Source: Octopus vulgaris
Taxonomy: Eukaryota
DNA length: 64,000 nt
NCBI GenBank assembly: GCA_951406725.2
Contig: OX597822.1
Coordinates: 65,906,001-65,970,000 of the forward strand
Reading direction: 5' to 3'
Shown piece by piece: positions 5,653-58,200 of the stretch. Position numbers and translations under genes: made by a program. Positions within the stretch are counted from its first letter, which is position 1; each line of letters begins with the position of its first letter. Below the pieces are notes generated by a model. It was not told the DNA's origin. It worked only from the letters and a program-made list of their open reading frames with translations, and made no database searches.

Positions 5653-5700
5653 GTATATATGTATGTCTATATATATGTATATATAGACATACATATATAA
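5138..5700. repeat. Compound (CA)n/(TA)n/(TACA)n microsatellites
   Basis: Seen directly in the sequence. Confidence 0.9.
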
Positions 5701-5701
5701 A

Positions 5702-5931
5702 AGGCGGCGAGCTGGCAGAAACGTTAGCACGCCGAGCGAAATGCATAGCCGTATTTCGTCTGCCGTTACGTTCTGAGTTCAAATTCCGCCGAGGTCGACT
5801 TTGCCTTTCATCTTTTCTGGGTCGATAAATAAAGTACCAGTTTCGCACTGGGGTCTATGTAATCGACTTAATCCCTTTGTCTGTCCTTGTTTGTCCCCTC
5901 TATGTTTAGCCCCTTGTGGGTAGTAAGGAAA
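5702..5931 (+). mobile_element. tRNA-derived SINE family B, monomer
   Basis: GGCGGCGAGCTGGCAGAAACG (box A-like), GTTCAAATTCC (box B) and a central GCCTTTCATC...GGTCGATAAA..AAGTACCAG. Many copies in the window. Confidence 0.85.
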
Positions 5932-5947
5932 TATATGTGTATGTATG

Positions 5948-9042: not shown

Positions 9043-9614
9043 TTGAGTTGTCCGGAAAGTACATGCCGATTTTTAAAGGAAAGAAAAAGGCCAATAAATA
9101 CTTGCCATTACATTTTTAATCAACCAAATATTAACCATTTTGTTGCACAATGCATCTCCATCTTTCGTTTAACTTGAAAATACCCTTTTCCCAGAATTGA
9201 GGTGGTTCCATGGCAAAGAATTCATCAAGGTATCTTTTTACGTCATCCAAGGAATTGAAATTTTTATCATTAAGATTATTCTGCAGATACCTGAATAAGT
9301 GGAAATCCGAAGGAGCAATATCTGGTGAGTATGGAGGGTGAGGTAACATCCCAGCCGATCTGTAGCAATTTTTGTCTGGTTCCCAAAGCATCAAGTGCCG
9401 AAAATGAACTTACTTATCTTCCATTTTAAAGGGTTACAGAATTAACACAGGTTATAGGTACATAAACACATAAACCTTCTTCCACGAAAAGATAGCTTAA
9501 ACTGTCCTCTAAATGGAGGTGTAGTCAAATCCTATTTTATGGACTGAACCATGTTCTAAAATAAGTCGAAAGGTAAATTACTATAAATCGGCACGAACTT
9601 TCCGGACTGCCCAA
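9043..9614 (-). mobile_element. Internally deleted non-autonomous mariner element
   Basis: TIRs TTG(A/G)GTTGTCCGGAAAGT with TA flanks. The minus strand encodes an N-terminal MEDK.VHFRHLML fused to HPPYSPDIAPSDFHLFR...GIFKLNERW. Confidence 0.9.
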
Positions 9615-17660: not shown

Positions 17661-17967
17661 CAAAGCTAAATAGAAACGTATTTATTGATTATACATATTA
17701 ACTTTACCGAATATCCCACAGACATACAGGTTAATTATGAAAACAATTCTCATAGAGGAGCATGACACTCTAAGAGACGAAAGGAAAGGCATGCGCACAT
17801 CACAAATATTACAAGAGTGTCATCGATCACGGGTAACTCTAACCTATAAAGGACGCTCACGAAGACAATTAGAACTACGGTCAAAATACGAATCTGATGA
17901 TGTCGAACATTCATACAGAAGCTCTCATAAAATGATGTGGTTTAGAAGCCGACAACACTGTTGGCAC

Positions 17968-18382
17968 TTATTTCTTTACTGCCCACAAGGGGCTAAATAT
18001 AGAGGAAACAAACAAGGAGAGACAAACGGATTAAGTCGATTATAACGACCCCAGTGCGTAACTGGTACTTATTTAACCGACCCCGAAAGGATGAAAGGCA
18101 AATTTGACCTCGGCGGAATTTGAACTCAGAACGTAATGGCAGACGAAATACCTATTTCTTTACTACCCACAAGGGGCTAAACACAGAGAGAACAAACAAG
18201 GACAAACAAATGGATTAAGTCGATTATATAGACCCCAGTGTATAACTGGTACTTATTTAATCGATCCCGAAAGGATGAAAGACAAAGTCGACTTTGGCAG
18301 AATTTAAACTCAGAAAATAGCAGCAGACGAAATACCGCTAAGCATTTCGCCCGGCGTGCTAAAGATTCTGCCAGCTCACCGC
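17968..18382 (-). mobile_element. SINE family B dimer
   Basis: Two ~184-bp units; the head is at the right end. Confidence 0.85.
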
Positions 18383-20031: not shown

Positions 20032-20583
20032 AAGACGACGAGCTTATCCGTATTGCGTCTGCCGTTACGTTCTAAGTTCAAATTCCGCCGAGGTCGACTT
20101 TACCTTTCATCATTTTAGGCTCGATAAATTAAGTACCAGTTACGTACTGGGCTCGATGTAATCGACTTAATCCCTTTGTCTGTCCTTGTTTGTCCCCTCT
20201 GCGTTTAGCCCCTTGTGGGTAGTAAAGAAATAAGTATTTCGTCTGCCGTTACGTTCTGAGTTCAAATTTCACCGAGGTCGACTTTGCCTTTCATGGATTC
20301 GGGGTCGATAAATTAAGTACCAGTTACGCACTGCGGTCGATATAATCGACTCAATCCGTCTGTATGTCCTTGTTTGTCGCCTCTGTGTTTAGCCCCTTGT
20401 GGGTAGTAAAGAAATAGGTATTTCGTCTGTCTTTAAGTTCTGAGTTCTAATTTTGCCGAGGTCAACTTTGTCTTTCATCCTTTCGGGGTCGATAAATTAA
20501 GTACCAGTTGCGTACTGGGGTCGATAGAATCGACTGCCCCCCTCCCTAAAAGTTTTCCGGCCTTATGCCTAGAGTAGAAAAGA
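20032..20583 (+). mobile_element. SINE family B trimer with target-site duplication
   Basis: Units start at 20050, 20234 and 20418 (184-bp period). Flanked by AAGTG(G/A)TAGACCCCGAA at 20015-20031 and 20584-20600. Confidence 0.88.
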
Positions 20584-27966: not shown

Positions 27967-28016
<50 letters not shown>

Positions 28017-28042
28017 CAATATGTTACATTACTCGGTAGTCA

Positions 28043-28105
28043 AGATAAAACTCTGAGTTTCAGATGCCGAAGTGGAAATCCACAACACCATCTCTTCGGT
28101 TATCT
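28043..28105 (-). ncRNA. Putative minimal hammerhead ribozyme in the 3' pLTR, sense to the GIY-YIG ORF
   Basis: Exact reverse complement of 29057-29119. Confidence 0.7.
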
Positions 28106-28308
28106 GGCTATTTGAAAACGTTATGAAAAAATACCGTTAAATAAAGGGAAATTACTCTGTTATAACTCTGCTTGCCTGCGTACTTATACATCGCTCGCAT
28201 TTTTCGTCATAAAAATTATATAAAAATACATAAAAAATATATAAAAAATATATAAAAATATATAAAAATATATAAATTCTTCTTGGGACATAACATAGAA
28301 AGCATGTT

Positions 28309-29028
28309 CTATCTGTTTTCTTTAGGGGACCAAAAACGTAACAGAAATTTAGTCACATGTGGGCATGATCCGAAAAGCTCTGTCCTTGTATTTAGACATG
28401 TAGTAGGGTCTAAGCTGCTTTTCCAGATAAGCCATCTCTCCATGTCGCATAGACCGCACCTTCCGCTGCCGTTAGTATAGGGCTCACATCTGGCCAAAAT
28501 CTTCCATTGTATGTTATAATCGACACCTTTATCTCTTAAAGACCAAATATGATTAGACAATTGTGTCGCTTTTCTTCTGTTCCAGTGCCTAAAGCTCAAA
28601 GTGTGGTTATTGAACCTGGCCTTGAAATTACCCTCTGTAAGGCCCACGTATTTCTTCGTCGAAACGGTGTCTTTAGTGGTTATAGAGTTTACGGTAGCTT
28701 CATAGATGATGGTCTTGGACATGCAAGCTCCATTTAGCGGGCACAATTCTTTATTCCTGCATGAACAGCTGTTTTCTTCTTGTGTTTTTTGTATGTTATG
28801 TTTGATTATGTTTTTAAAATTGGTAGTTGAACTAAAACTAATTTTTAAATTGTGTCTATTGAAGAGTTTCCTATAAGTATGGTTAACTGGAAAATGTATA
28901 TCTATCAGTGCTAGGAAATATTTACCTATATTGAAGGCCACCTCGGGTGAGTAAGGAAGCGTAAACCAGATGACCTTCTTATTTCTATTATTCCTTTTCC
29001 TTACTGTTGGGCTAGTGATATAGGTAAA
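28309..29028 (-). CDS. Penelope-like element ORF C-terminus: Cys-rich linker plus GIY-YIG endonuclease (RT domain missing)
   Basis: The frame is open from the IR junction: ...RNKKVIWFTLPYSPEV-AFNIGKYFL...CSCRNKELCPLNGAC...IIYEATV...KYVGLTEGNFKARFNNH...LSNHIW...CGLCDME...LNTRTE..CPH. The ORF track calls 28309-28941 from a GTG. Confidence 0.88.
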   Translation of the reverse strand, partial: FTYITSPTVRKRNNRNKKVIWFTLPYSPEVAFNIGKYFLALIDIHFPVNHTYRKLFNRHNLKISFSSTTNFKNIIKHNIQKTQEENSCSCRNKELCPLNGACMSKTIIYEATVNSITTKDTVSTKKYVGLTEGNFKARFNNHTLSFRHWNRRKATQLSNHIWSLRDKGVDYNIQWKILARCEPYTNGSGRCGLCDMERWLIWKSSLDPTTCLNTRTELFGSCPHVTKFLLRFWSPKENR

Positions 29029-29056
29029 TATTTTTTCATAACGTTTTCAAATAGCC

Positions 29057-29119
29057 AGATAACCGAAGAGATGGTGTTGTGGATTTCCACTTCGGCATCT
29101 GAAACTCAGAGTTTTATCT
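29057..29119 (+). ncRNA. Putative minimal type I hammerhead ribozyme (core CCGAAGA, GUU site)
   Basis: AGATAA (stem I), CCGAAGA, GATG...CATC(T) (stem II), GAAA, CTCAGAG-T (palindromic stem III), T, TTATCT (stem I'). Confidence 0.7.
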
Positions 29120-29215
29120 TGACTACCGAGTAATGTAACATATTGTATAGATAAATTTCATCTATTTACATAATATTGAGGTCTCTTTCTTTCTTTTGTT
29201 ATCTTACCGTTTTAT

Positions 29216-29261
<46 letters not shown>

Positions 29262-37677: not shown

Positions 37678-38311
37678 AGTCATTTGACTGTGGCCATGCT
37701 AGAGCACCGTCTTTGGTCGAGCAAATCGACCCCAGGACTTATTCTTTGTAAGCCTAGTACTAATTCTATCGGTTTCTTTTGCCGAACCGCTTAGTGACGG
37801 GAAGGTAAACACACCAGCATCGGTTGTCAAGCGATGGTGTGCTGGCGAGCTGGCAGAAACGTTAGCACGCTGGGCGAAATGCTTAGCAGTATTTCGTCTG
37901 CCGCTACGTTCTGAGTTCAAATTCCGCCGAGGTCGACTTTGCCTTTCATCCTTTCGGGGTTGATTAAATAAGTACCAGTTACGCACTGGGGTCGATATAA
38001 TCGACTTAATCCGTTTGTCTGTCCTTTGTCCTCTCTGTGTTTAGCCCCTTGTGGGTAGTAAAGAAATAGGTGTGGGGGACAAACACAGACACACAAACAT
38101 ATATACACATATACATACACACACACACACAAACATATATATATATATATATATATATACGACGGGCTTCTTTCAGTTTCCGTCTACCAAACCCACTCAC
38201 AAGGCTTTGTCGGCCCGAGGCTATAGTAGAAGACACTTGCCTAAGTGGGTCTGAACCCGGAACCGTATGGTTAGGAAGCAAGGTACTTACCATACAGCCA
38301 CTCCTGCACCT
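37678..38311 (-). mobile_element. SINE family A containing a nested family B SINE
   Basis: Family A segments at 37678-37841 and 38069-38311. Confidence 0.85.
37842..38068 (+). mobile_element. SINE family B inserted in family A, possible GGTGTG TSD
   Basis: Complete family B monomer. GGTGTG at 37836-37841 and 38069-38074. Confidence 0.85.
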
Positions 38312-40321: not shown

Positions 40322-41598
40322 CGAGGGGCGTTCAATAAGTAATGCCCCTGACCTACTTGCTGTTGTTTGATCTAGCTGCCATTTTCCATATGCACTTATT
40401 TGTACCTCTATAGATTAAGTGGCGAACTACAGCTCTGAACTAATTTTGGTTTCTGATTTACAGGTGTTTGAACTGAGCCAAGTGTGAAATGGAGCCTGTT
40501 GAGTGTCGAGCAGTGATCTGGATTTTGTATTTGAAAGGACGCACACCACGGGAGACTTTTGATGAATTGAAAGTAACTTATGGTGAAGATGCCCCATCAT
40601 ATGACCTTGTAAAACGCTGGCATTGTGAATTCAAACATAGTCGGAACTCTGTGGAAACAGCTCCCAGATCTGGTCGCCCCCTTCTGCTGTTGAGACGTCT
40701 GTCCGTCAAGTTGAGGCTGCCATTTTGGAAGGTCAACGCATAACTATTCGCCAAATAGCCCATAAGGTCAAGATTAGTACCGGGTCTGTGGAAACTATCA
40801 TTCATGACCATTTGCATATGAAAAAGGTGTCTGCCAGATGGATTTCCAGGTTGCTCACACCTTTCCAGAAGCAAGATAAACGCGTTGAGTGCTCGAGAGA
40901 TGTTGAGTGCTCGAGAGATGTGCCAAGAAGTTGAGTCAAAATTTTTCAAAAGACTGATCACACAGGATAAAACCTGGGTCCATCACTATGATCCATAGAC
41001 CAAAGCCCAGCCAATGCAGTGAAAGCACCGTGACTCACCTCCTCCAAAAAAGGCAAGGGTGCAGCTCTCCGCTGACAAGGTTATGCTCACAGTCTTCTGG
41101 GACCAGGACGGAGTAGTGATGACAGATTTCCTGGCAAAGGGTACCACAATTACAGGAACCTATTATGCTTCACTTTTGAGGAAATTAAGAGAAGCTATCA
41201 AAATCAAGAGGCGGGGCAAGATCAGCAAAGGCATCCTCCTCCTGCAGGACAACGCTCCGGTCCACAACTCGCGTGTCGCCAGATCAGAAGTACAGGCATG
41301 CAGCTATGAAATCCTCCCCTTGCACCCTCTGATTTTCACCTCTTCCCAGCCATGAAGTTGATTTTGAAAGGAAAGCGTTTCCCAGACGATGCAGCCTTGA
41401 TTTCTGAAGTCACGTCGTGGATGGAGGACCAAGCTGGGGTCTTCTACAAAAACGGTCTCCAGAGCTGTATCAAACGATGGGAGAAATGCATAACTCTGGG
41501 TAGTTCCTATGTAGGAAAAGACTAATAACTGTGCCAAGTGTCGTTGCTCTACTGCTATGGGAAGTGGGTCAGGGGCATTACTTATTGAACGCCTCTCG
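40322..41598 (+). mobile_element. Near full-length mariner transposon (~1.28 kb; irritans/Himar1-like)
   Basis: TIRs CGAG(G/A)GGCGTTCAATAAGTAATGCCCCTGACC at both ends, with a TA TSD at 40320-40321 and 41599-41600. Confidence 0.95.
40489..41526 (+). pseudogene. Mariner DD34D transposase, frameshifted
   Basis: MEPVECRAVI...APRSGRP, KKVSARWISRLLT, TQDKTWVHHYDP, KVMLTVFWD, LLQDNAPVH and APSDFHLFP are split over several frames. Confidence 0.92.
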
Positions 41599-54565: not shown

Positions 54566-55221
54566 TATAAATTCATATTTATACAAATATATAACTAATA
54601 TACATAGTTATACAATTACAGAAATAATATATAATATATATACAGCCACGTGAACACATACACACGCAGACACGCAAACATATAAATGCAAAAAGACACA
54701 ATCACACACACACGCACACACACACACACAAACACACACACATGCACGTACGAGCATACAAACATATATATGAGAAAGAAAAGGAGGTGGTGAGGACTGA
54801 TCGAGGGTTTATTGATTTTTAGCATGTTCACCTGTACACAGTTGGATATTATAAATATTTTTGATGCCTCTTCTTAATTTACATGCTGCGTTATTCGAAT
54901 AAAGAAATTTGTTGATGCTCCATTTTCGTTGTTACTTCTGTGAATTCCTAGAGTGTTCTGGTGCAGTTAACCTCTATTAATATGGAACAATTATACTTTG
55001 AGTTGTTTTCACTATTAGGCATAGATATATCTATCAAATTTCTTCCAAAATACCCTTGTTCGTCAGAGCTTTGTATGGAAAATATGTGGGCAAAACATTG
55101 AAGGAAATGATAAAAGTATCTTCTATATCCGCCGCACATAAAGTGGAGTCTGCATTAATGCACAGAAGAAGCCAGAGAAATACAGATAGAATATCTAATA
55201 TAAGTAGCTTGGTATGTATGA

Positions 55222-55277
<56 letters not shown>

Positions 55278-55447
55278 GGAGAATTCACAAAAAATAACAA
55301 AAGACGAAGACAACAAACAGATGTATCAGTATAACGCTCGGGAAATAAAAAAATTCTTTAACGTTTCGAGCCTACGCTCTTCCGCAGAAAGGAACACAGA
55401 AAGGAACAAGGAGAGAAAATAAAGAATGTGTAGTGGCTAGTGATCTA
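55278..55447 (-). mobile_element. Penelope pLTR-like repeat between (TA)n tracts, with a hammerhead-like motif at 55356-55391
   Basis: Homologous to 2633-2900. The minus strand reads CTTT-CTGCGGA-A-GAGC-GTAG-GCTC-GAAA-CG-T-T-AAAG. Confidence 0.6.
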
Positions 55448-55478
<31 letters not shown>

Positions 55479-55550
55479 ATATGTATATATAAATATATGA
55501 AAAAACAAGTCAAGATAGAAAATGCTAAAATAATTTTCTAAAGAACATTT

Positions 55551-55587
55551 CAGTACCGGTTTCAGTCATTTGAAACCTTTTCAACTG
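55551..55587 (-). ncRNA. Putative minimal hammerhead ribozyme, inverted copy
   Basis: The minus strand reads CAG-TTGAAAA-GGTTTCAAATGACT-GAAA-CCGG-T-A-CTG. It differs from the right copy only inside stem-loop II. Confidence 0.62.
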
Positions 55588-55711
55588 TAACGAAAATTTA
55601 GAAAAATTAAAAGAAAAGGTTTTTTAAAAGAATATTTGTATAGTGTTCAAATATAAGTGACAATTTCCTTGTTTCTGCCTTTCTCTGTCTCTCTTGTTTA
55701 CAATTGTGGGA

Positions 55712-56889
55712 TCATAAATGGGGTCCGGAACTCTCGTGGGAAAAAAATTTCGTGGCCCGGTCTGTCAAAGACCCGACCATTGTTTCGTAGACACGCCGTG
55801 TCACCACCATAGTCGATTAAATTAGTTTGATAGTTGATCTCTGATTGGCTGTATGCAAATAAGTTCATAAATGGGGTCCGGAACTCTCGTGGGAAAAAAT
55901 TTCGCGTCCTGGTCTGTCAAATTCCCGACCATCGTTTCGTAGTCACGCCGTTTCAACACTATCTTTGATTAAATTAGTTTGATAGTTGATCTCTGATTGG
56001 CTGTATGCAAATAAGTTCATAAATGGGGTCCGGAACTCTCGTGGGAAAAAATTTCGCGTCCTGGTCTGTCAAATTCCCGACCATTGTTTCGTAGTCACAC
56101 CGTGTCACTACCATATTCGATTAAATTAGTTTGATAGTTGATCTCTGATTGGCTGTATGCAAATAAGTTCATAAATGGGGTCCGGAACTCTCGTGGCAAA
56201 AAAATTTCGCGTCCTGGTCTATCAAATTCCCGACCATCGTTTCGTAGTCACGCCGTTTCAACACCATCTTTGATTAAATTAGTTTGATAGTTGATCTCTG
56301 ATTGGCTGTATGCAAATAAGTTCATAAATTGGGTCCGGAACATTCGTGGGAAAAAAATTTCGCGGCCTGGTCTGTCAAAGTCCCGACCATTGTTTCGTAG
56401 TCACGGCGTGTCACTACCATAGTTGATTAAATTAGTTTGATATTTGATCTCTGATTGGCTGTATGCAAATAAGTTCATAAATGGGGTCCTGAACTGTCGT
56501 GGGAAAAAAATTTCGCGGCCCGGTCTGTCAAATTCCCGACCATTGTTTCGTAGTCACACCGTGTCACCACCATATTCGATTAAATTAGTTTGATAGTTGA
56601 TCTCTGATTGGCTGTATGCAAATAAGTTCATAAATAGGGTCCGGAACATTAGTGGGAAAAAATTTCGCGGCCTGGTCTGTCAAAGTCCCGCGTCACCACC
56701 ATAGTTGATTAAATTAGTTTGATATTTGATCTCTGATTGGCTGTATGCAAATAAGTTCATAAATGGGGTCCTGAACTGTCGTGGGAAAAAAATTTCGCGG
56801 CCTGGTCTGTCAAATTCCCTACCATTGTTTCGTAGTCATGTCGTCTCACCACCATAGTTGATTGAATTAGTTTGATAGATGGTCTCTGA
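55712..56889. repeat. Tandem array of eight ~152-153-bp units
   Basis: CATAAAT landmarks at 55713, 55866, 56018, 56170, 56323, 56476, 56629 and 56758. Unit 7 has a ~23-bp deletion and unit 8 is truncated. Confidence 0.97.
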
Positions 56890-56978
56890 ATAATGCCACT
56901 TATATTTGGACACTATACAAATATTCTTTTAAAAAACATTTTCTTTTAATTTTTCTAAAGTTAATTATTTAATCGTTC

Positions 56979-57015
56979 CAGTTGAAAAGGCCTCAATTGC
57001 CTGAAACCGGTACTG
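56979..57015 (+). ncRNA. Putative minimal type I hammerhead ribozyme (U3-A8 core variant, GUA site)
   Basis: CAG-TTGAAAA-GGCCTCAATTGCCT-GAAA-CCGG-T-A-CTG. Stem III is the palindrome ACCGGT. Confidence 0.62.
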
Positions 57016-57254
57016 AAATGTTCTTTAGAAAATTATTTTAGCATTTTCTATCTTAACTTGTTTTTTCATATATATCAACTCGTGTGTTCCTTTTCATCCT
57101 TATACATATATATATATATATATATATACGTACTCGTGTATGTATTTATGCATCTGTGCATGTATGTGCATATTTGTGTGTGTTTAAAAATTATATACAT
57201 ATATATACATATATGTACATTATCTATATATATATCTATATTTATAGCTATGTC

Positions 57255-57285
<31 letters not shown>

Positions 57286-57349
57286 CACCCTTTATTATTA
57301 CTGATAACCATATTTTATCCCAGTATATATATATACATATATATATATA

Positions 57350-58200
57350 CGTGAAGGCTGATCAATGAATACCTGGACTGTAGCCAAAGTAATGAAGTTA
57401 AAGCACCCCGAGTGTAACTGCTCGACAAAAACTGTGCTTGAAATCTGCTGTGCTAGAGCATAAACTTTTTACGTTCTAGCTCACTTCCGCTCTTCACACT
57501 AGCGCTTGGGAGGAAGGTGTGTAGCATGTGAATGTCGCGTTGACCAAGCGAGTGAAAGTTGTCATGCTGATACCGGTTCAGAGGCCTACGCAACGTTCCA
57601 GAAAGGGTACGGTGAGGAGTGTATGAGCAGCACACAAGTGTACGAGTTTTTAAGACGTTTCCAAGATTGCCAAAAAAAAATGTCGATTTTGAAGAACGTT
57701 CTGGGAGGGCCGCAGCCAGCAGAACAGAGAAAATCATCGCAGATGTGTGTGCAGATGTGTGAAGTTATACAGATGAGTTATGGTTCAGTTTAGTCCTTTA
57801 TCACTAAAGATTTGGTTATGAGACGCGTGTCTACAAAAACTGTTTCCAGCTGACCAAGAAGGCACTCGGGGTTCAGTTGCACAAGTTCTTGATTGTGTCA
57901 AGAACTTTGAAAACTGTTTCAAAACTTTGCCTAGGTCCCTGAGCGGGTATTGCCAAGCTTTTGGCAAACGATTATGCAGATTGTCTGCTCAACTTTGCCT
58001 GTCGTGGTCAATGTGACGATCACTCGCTACACACGTTCATTCCAATCACTGCTGTAAACAGCGGAAGTGAGTCAGAACGTTAAAACTTAATCCACATGCA
58101 CAAGAGTGTTTACGGTCAATCCGTGCCAAGCGACTTAACTCTACATGCTTTAGCTTTGTTACTATGGCAACAGTCCAGCTATTTATTGATAAGACCACAC
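57350..58200. mobile_element. Mariner derivative made of two inverted 5' ends
   Basis: TIR-like CTGATCAATGAATACCTGGACTG / CAGTCCAGCTATTTATTGAT. The plus strand gives SEAYATFQKGYGEECMSSTQVYEFLRRF (mariner HTH-like). CTCACTTCCGCT and GTGTAGC occur on both arms in opposite orientation. Confidence 0.72.

Follow-up and report, generated by a model that had tools for sequence, protein, structure and literature searches.

The window analysed here comprises 64,000 nucleotides of Octopus vulgaris DNA (contig OX597822.1), to which all positions refer. Toward its right end lies a non-coding element in which two inverted arms, each bearing a hammerhead motif, enclose a linker and an array of tandem units. 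Its features are as follows:

55446–55498 (no strand): TA-rich tract where the long copy has its 3′ end, identified by TRF and presumed to be the target microsatellite
55493–55667 (minus): left arm, 175 bp, read as the 3′ end (pseudo-LTR) of a long, putatively 5′-truncated copy; 165/175 positions identical to the right arm
55551–55587 (minus): minimal type I hammerhead of the left arm, predicted cut after 55554
55668–55710 (minus): linker, purine-rich on the sense strand, belonging to an abundant family and not locus-specific
55712–56889 (minus): array of eight units, delimited by TRF and BLAST/alignment
55744–55818 (no strand): GC-rich middle of unit 1, ~75 bp, absent from the shorter units of other copies
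55819–55864 (no strand): AT-rich block of 46 bp, the first of seven copies, the others starting at 55971, 56123, 56276, 56429, 56582 and 56711
56888–57067 (plus): right arm, a short inverted copy with a 2-nt overlap (GA) at the array join
56979–57015 (plus): second hammerhead, in the right arm, predicted cut after 57012
57068–57100 (plus): one-sided extension of 33 nt, seen in the sequence and read as the tail of a Penelope-like element (PLE)
57101–57130 (no strand): TA tract at the end of this tail, seen in the sequence

Related copies were followed in public runs. Parts of the stretch are contained in 16 of the 24 runs listed (nine studies, five organism labels), and four of them (X1, X3, X5 and X12; three labels) were examined, leaving out rows with small shares. 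That X12 consists of RNA is a guess; its 484 contigs and its lower depth over a putative intron were not counted as evidence of expression or splicing.

Inverted repeats of about 170 bp had been described in an earlier note on this DNA, and BLAST recovered them at the same positions (55493–55662 and 56894–57073; 88.9% identity including gaps). Local alignment widened the arms to 55493–55667 and 56888–57073, where 165 of the 175 aligned positions agree and the right arm is about 10 nt longer. The divergence between left and right arm is 5.7%, and in the predicted fold of a full transcript 159 of the 175 left-arm bases pair with the right arm. Both arms carry the allele C55538/G57028, which makes up less than 1% of the summed depth in X1 and X3 and therefore indicates that the arms stem from one template or from a small subfamily. 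The ends of the element are asymmetric, with the linker on one side and the 33-nt tail on the other, and a target site duplication (TSD) is unreadable within the TA tracts. The location of the repeats between TA-rich tracts, as described earlier, applies to the left side but not to the right, where 33 nt (57068–57100, the first eight being an ATAT run) separate the arm from the TA run. Contigs of the family enter (TA)n before 55502–55503 in all four runs. On the other side, the summed contig depth in the bin 57059–57100 relative to the preceding bin was 0.83, 1.32, 0.97 and 3.89 in the four runs, compared with ~0.36 expected if the extension were private to this locus; this test is coarse, summed contig depth being only a rough guide.

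The hammerheads of both arms have a U3-A8 core replacing C3-G8 and a palindromic CCGG helix III. The left-arm motif further consists of a 3-bp helix I and a helix II of four pairs, two of them G-U, while helix II of the right arm has a C-C mismatch when read in register, or three pairs when the register is shifted. A type I descriptor applied to the 64-kb window produced five matches (cleavage base at 28049 minus, 29113 plus, 55360 minus, 55554 minus and 57012 plus), which correspond to the two arms of the element, the two arms of another copy at 28–29 kb, and a neighbouring repeat at 55360. It thereby confirmed the two outward-facing hammerheads, with sites at 57012 and 55554, that had been proposed from the sequence. 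The background was low, with a mean of 0.1 matches over 30 shuffled windows and none among 2000 shuffles of the right arm, but these figures overstate the significance, as the descriptor was composed with the motifs already in view. The units of the array contained no descriptor match. A search of the whole window against Rfam at the gathering score gave no match, and hammerhead families were also absent from the 49 matches obtained up to E 10 for 55200–57300. Single-strand minimum free energy folds did not form the hammerhead, as would be expected because such motifs are thought to need a dimer or the help of proteins (PMC4209133, PMC11167929).

At positions 10.1–11.1 of helix II, the family contigs carry a G-U pair (as in the window), a G-C pair (57002 T>C) or an A-U pair. 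The last variant lies in a loose end behind 55570 and was found in 46, 19 and 6 contigs in X3, X5 and X12, respectively. In most of the depth of the public runs a U-A pair replaces the C-C mismatch of the right arm, and the U-G pair at 10.4 of the left arm is mostly C-G. The variant rows behind this comparison are unphased and are among the 40 of 155 rows listed. The minimal hammerhead motifs are thus borne out as real, helix II being preserved by different base pairs among family copies.

The left arm has two further features. An ATG at 55569, inside helix II, starts a frame of 14 codons, and a pyrimidine-rich stretch ending in CAG lies upstream of the hammerhead core, where it could act as a splice acceptor. 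A splice joint was not among the 15 of 76 joints listed for the public runs. In a metagenome scan, the 21-nt hammerhead pattern had a single match (L001), which was rejected as only the pattern matched and the flanks were unrelated; two viral scans and a scan of prokaryote genomes gave no match.

These motifs resemble the minimal hammerheads of PLEs. In PMC4209133, palindromic helices III are described for PLE minimal hammerheads and covariation of U3 with A8 for those of Schistosoma, and the intron of Drosophila virilis Penelope ends at helix I; the ORF of Poseidon_Ac is stated to start at an ATG within helix II (PMC11167929). The element shares with the PLE minimal hammerheads, including the U3-A8 variant of Schistosoma Cercyon, the U3-A8 core, the palindromic helix III, possibly an intron end at helix I, and the pairing of nearby opposite-strand motifs, which that source attributes to truncated PLEs. 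Differences from the hammerheads covered there are the four pairs of helix II, the 3-bp helix I and the variable G10.1-C11.1 pair, as well as an in-register fold that lacks an unpaired base between A9 and 10.1 (PMC4209133). The annotation paper of O. vulgaris mentions hammerheads neither in its main text nor in its supplement (PMC13282606).

The array had been described as eight units of 153 bp. The number of units stands, but only six are full, one is internally deleted and one is truncated. The units start at 55712, 55865, 56017, 56169, 56322, 56475, 56628 and 56757, and their lengths are 153, 152, 152, 153, 153, 153 and 129 bp, the last of these after a 23-nt deletion, followed by a partial eighth unit that ends at ~56889 at the right arm. 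Pairwise identity among the units is 83–98%. As the earlier note had it, there is no ORF of note: the longest in the element measures 56 aa from ATG and 72 aa from stop to stop. Linker and array meet within a unit, where the unit and the continuation of the family sequence have the four nucleotides GTTC in common; the window shows one mismatch there. Units 2 and 4 differ at three positions and units 5 and 7 at five, the latter two both with the sole block variant, and TRF also reported a period of 306; this two-unit periodicity suggests duplications of dimers after, or shortly before, insertion.

Variation is unevenly distributed within the units. Among units 1–7, variable columns number 1 of 46 in the AT-rich block, whose boundary was set from joints in the public-run contigs, 18 of 71 in the GC-rich middle and 7 of 36 in the head (Fisher p = 0.0006 for middle versus block). 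At half the divergence of the arms, 9.2 changes would be expected over the seven blocks, and one event was seen. The near-invariance of the block suggests constraint, as judged from the aligned units, but later homogenisation of the array fits it equally well. Moreover, of the 18 variable columns in the middle, 8 involve a CpG, and the contrast between block and middle may be partly due to CpG mutability.

By match to consensus sequences, the block contains a putative GATA-like site, a CCAAT in an NF-Y-type context and a perfect (POU) octamer. An octamer at most 25 nt from an NF-Y-type CCAAT arose in 1 of 20,000 shuffles of the unit, in a comparison made post hoc. Octamers next to CCAAT occur in the distal element of snRNA-type genes (as in U3 snoRNA), in the newt satellite 2 promoter and in the histone H2B box. 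Inspection by eye revealed no convincing snRNA proximal sequence element. At 55861 and 55871, and at the equivalent positions of every unit, the units in the window have A, and most of the family depth has G and C, respectively; the G form at 55861 matches, on the minus strand, the context of the histone H2B box.

In the public runs, arm and linker belong to an abundant family: the rows with the best coverage in X1 and X3 have 99–118 contigs that bear variants (104–118 at position 55538 of the left arm and 111–114 at 55660/55663), close to the upper limit of 128 that such a count can reach. Loose ends, which overall span 55701–55710, lead behind 55708–55710 into one other sequence (32+17 contigs in X1, 42+20 in X3, 11 in X5 and 5 in X12). 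Hence, the linker belongs to the family, many copies of which do not continue into this array at that point. The flank of the block with the octamer is likewise well represented (92–106 contigs at 55861 in X1 and X3), and both block and arm are present in all four runs at a similar order of abundance. The GC-rich middle is rare, with 1–14 contigs per listed position. The ratio of summed depth between arm and middle was 213 in X1, 296 in X3 and 168 in X5, and that between block and arm was 0.75, 0.26 and 0.54, respectively (overall range 0.24–0.75); these summed contig depths are rough and do not represent copy numbers. Joints at 55743>55819, 55743>55826, 55895>55819, 56048>55992 and 56049>55979, among the 15 of 76 joints listed, imply that units of ~71–81 bp occur elsewhere that have the head and the AT-rich block and lack the middle. 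Pieces 85–90% alike to the long unit occur in X3 and X5, so the 153-bp unit is not unique to this locus. In other copies, another conserved sequence adjoins the block at 55818 (24 contigs in X3 and two in X12). Among the 32 of 14,404 pieces listed, no contig bridges either junction of the array, which does not speak for the absence of such contigs, and the separate abundance of arm and array parts is no proof that they form a single element.

A second copy with inverted hammerhead arms in the same window served as a comparator, with which the family of the element shares one short word:

28017–29217 (minus): 5′-truncated PLE copy of a different family, with an ORF remnant at 28309–29046, inverted hammerhead arms and a one-sided extension of 72 nt
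28056–28065 (minus), 29115–29126 and 57047–57058: shared AT-rich word, seen by sequence

Its arms (28006–28133 and 29029–29156) are 98.4% identical, and the one-sided extension runs to 29217. The ORF remnant is C-terminal and open, encodes 245 aa, and is 39% identical to a protein that contains a reverse transcriptase (RT). Pfam at E 0.01 returned no family for either the remnant or this relative, and the copy was labelled a PLE on the basis of the 39% match together with the hammerhead arms and what we take to be RT and endonuclease motifs. The earlier note had regarded its outer architecture as the same as that of the element; this holds for the layout but not for the sequence, as BLAST found no match between them at E 1e-3. 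The polarity also agrees: in both cases, TA follows the end of the long sense piece, and the extension belongs to the short inverted one. In the 28-kb copy the place of the array is occupied by the PLE ORF remnant, whose stop lies ~290 nt from the end. Its family also has an ATG inside helix II, which starts a frame of 20 codons. In the hammerhead of this copy the core is C3-C4, and an additional U precedes G12 (alternatively, there is an A9-U pair). Judged by their identity, its arms are younger than the studied element, and the 72-nt extension exceeds the usual 30–40 nt of such tails. The shared 10-nt AT-rich word lies soon after the cleavage site in the 28-kb family and in the common allele of the family of the element; this may be chance.

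According to the literature, PLE insertions are 5′-truncated, often have an adjacent inverted truncated copy and a one-sided tail of 30–40 bp, target microsatellites and leave no discernible TSD (PMC8557442; PMC3846280). The element has a terminal-repeat hammerhead, an inverted truncated copy at its 5′ end and an AT-rich or microsatellite target, as expected of an EN+ PLE insertion. Compared with the EN+ insertions of Adineta Pen2a/Pen1 and Poseidon_Ac, it also agrees in the size of the hammerhead terminal repeat (~180–220 bp) with its shorter inverted copy, in the putative one-sided tail of ~31–33 nt and in the ATG inside helix II; it differs in that the 1.4 kb preceding the 3′ end contain no ORF. 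An AC-rich tail stem-loop as in Poseidon_Ac was not found at the tail of the element (fold of −1.1 kcal/mol). An origin of the arms by PLE-type insertion is, taken by itself, highly probable, and the arms are probably products of the insertion and not the ends of a mobile cassette.

We favour, with modest confidence, the fuller interpretation that the locus is a dead-end insertion made by PLE enzymes, composed of a truncated and a head-to-head inverted copy, in which the array represents the multiplied promoter or enhancer block of the family itself. The long copy on the minus strand, putatively 5′-truncated, would comprise array, linker and hammerhead arm, and would face the short inverted copy with its 33-nt tail head to head. 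For the Poseidon protein, PMC11167929 reports that the purified enzyme cleaves AT-rich DNA on both strands and extends both, that reverse transcription starts at two internal RNA sites whose offset gives the tail, and that it proceeded without need for hammerhead cleavage. By analogy with this published PLE biology, an RT-endonuclease may have cut both strands of the AT-rich target, and two cDNAs, one of ~1.4 kb and the other of ~0.2 kb, may have begun at two internal RNA sites close to each other, and their offset would be the tail. The 153-bp unit would be a rare variant made of a short unit plus the 75-bp GC-rich insert, and the join at 55710 is likely a microhomology deletion of intervening element sequence. 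Similar to the U3 of an LTR, the block at the 3′ end of one tandem copy would drive the next copy through the intron acceptor and the hammerhead, as the anatomy implies. Here, the downstream sequence is host TA repeat, and the copy thus could not regenerate itself. The position of the block array upstream of the acceptor-like sequence and the hammerhead fits, on anatomical grounds, the reported promoter and 5′-UTR intron of PLE pseudo-LTRs (pLTRs; PMC8557442). That the source copy encoded an RT seems to us about as probable as that it did not. The 1.4 kb without a coding remnant argues for a non-coding source copy; the spacers of 0.9–1.5 kb between ORF and pLTR in Adineta Pen1 (PMC3846280) weigh against it.

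A broader version of this reading is tentative and on the whole doubtful: an abundant octopus PLE family would use a variable-number NF-Y/POU-octamer array as a U3-like enhancer, have scattered many promoter arrays free of coding sequence, and vary its unit between ~77 and 153 bp. In that case, since PLEs insert 3′ end first and are often truncated, promoter arrays would become dispersed without coding sequence. For the preferred reading, too, a functional analogue is the U3 enhancer of ERV9/LTR12, where 5–17 CCAAT/GATA repeats are bound by NF-Y (PMC11853044). The likeness, by analogy only, is that a terminal repeat of a retroelement contains, or here would contain, repeats of variable number in which CCAAT and GATA are conserved (PMC11853044; PMC10968565). 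It is limited by the different class of retroelement, by units of 41 bp in LTR12 versus 71–153 bp here, and by an activity that is demonstrated in LTR12 and putative in the octopus family (same sources). The full-text literature searched, a scope outside which most subscription papers fall, contained no report of CCAAT-octamer units arrayed in tandem in a PLE terminal repeat.

The array could instead have been captured from an unrelated abundant repeat and play no part in the PLE cycle, the locus then being a one-off chimera that arose by template switching or read-through, at this insertion or in a small ancestral subfamily. We regard such a capture, which shares the PLE-type insertion with the preferred reading, as possible though not probable. 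In its favour, family contigs leave the window sequence at 55708–55710 in all four runs, the join falls within a unit at the GTTC microhomology, and the block has a different conserved neighbour at 55818 elsewhere; Adineta also provides a precedent, since spacers ahead of the 3′ pLTR and non-coding sequence between pLTRs are described there as captured (PMC3846280). However, the microhomology is also compatible with an internal deletion in one element, block and arm are of similar abundance in every run examined, and a CCAAT-octamer array directly upstream of an acceptor-like sequence and a hammerhead stands where PLE promoters are reported to lie (PMC8557442). The earlier note had instead proposed that arm, array and arm together form a non-autonomous element that is re-mobilised by PLE enzymes and disperses the 153-bp array as cargo. 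Its PLE-type origin, hammerheads, (TA)n flanks and variable units elsewhere are borne out, but the arm-array-arm structure as a mobile unit is improbable. Consistent with that proposal, pLTRs suffice in cis for moving unrelated sequence (PMC3846280), diverged relatives of the 153-bp unit, 85–90% alike, exist in X3 and X5, and the 1.4 kb has no ORF. Yet the opposed hammerheads could not excise a unit-length RNA and the arms would pair with each other, the summed depth of the 153-bp middle is roughly 170–300 times below that of the arm in X1, X3 and X5, and the published cargo case has two direct pLTRs plus an inverted one, the upstream direct pLTR being absent here. The note had made its proposal depend on arms and array being linked elsewhere in the genome; for the 153-bp form this linkage is partly lacking, as contigs leave at 55708–55710 and the middle is rare.

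That the locus derives from a MITE or foldback DNA transposon, its arms being terminal inverted repeats of 175 bp that enclose internal tandem repeats at a TA target, and its hammerhead incidental or inherited, appears very improbable to us. The long inverted ends, AT-rich arms and TA flanks would suit it, and tandem arrays are well documented within DNA transposons (PMC12692304), but the maintenance of the hammerhead core and of helix II by different pairs, the asymmetric ends (linker versus tail), an abundant family sequence that passes the repeat boundary on one side only, and the same layout in a known PLE copy of the same window speak against it. A tail on only one side, with inversion points that vary among most copies, would also count against it, and the public-run contigs already hint at this. 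Animal non-LTR retrozymes, as described in PMC7229834 and bioRxiv 10.64898/2026.07.22.740005, are likewise non-coding, hammerhead-bearing and PLE-related and contain tandem repeats, but differ in having same-strand hammerheads in consecutive tandem units, which carry none here. A retrozyme reading was rejected because the array units lack a hammerhead and the two motifs lie on opposite strands; with this orientation and the pairing of 159 of 175 arm bases, the locus cannot yield a retrozyme-type monomer.

The outer structure of the element is ordinary PLE anatomy, and the array is its point of interest. Inverted hammerhead arms, tails, U3-A8 cores, non-autonomous PLE derivatives and PLE-derived satellites are already published. 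PLEs make up 6.83% of the O. vulgaris assembly, in 190 families (PMC13282606 supplement), and their promoters have been characterised in very few elements. If the family indeed has a multiplied NF-Y/octamer block, PLEs could have in it a means of spreading enhancer-like arrays through cephalopod genomes; should the array be a one-off capture, what is left is a routine truncated insertion.

Several other repeats were observed in the window. Directly left of the element, a separate hammerhead repeat on the minus strand (55274–55445; predicted cut after 55360) shows C in place of A6 and an additional A following A9 in its core, together with an ACGT palindrome, and a 77% identical copy lies at 2634–2821. 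This repeat, which shares the TA tract with the element, probably represents a solo end of a further PLE family. Inverted tandem dimers/trimers of a 184-bp dispersed repeat occupy 17966–18343 and 20042–20535, 1.7 kb apart and 85% complementary, with further copies at 5699–5933 and 37844–38026. Finally, the segments 9131–9409, 40641–41355 and 57550–57800 resemble what we take, from motifs such as YSPDIAPSD, to be remnants of Tc1/mariner transposases.
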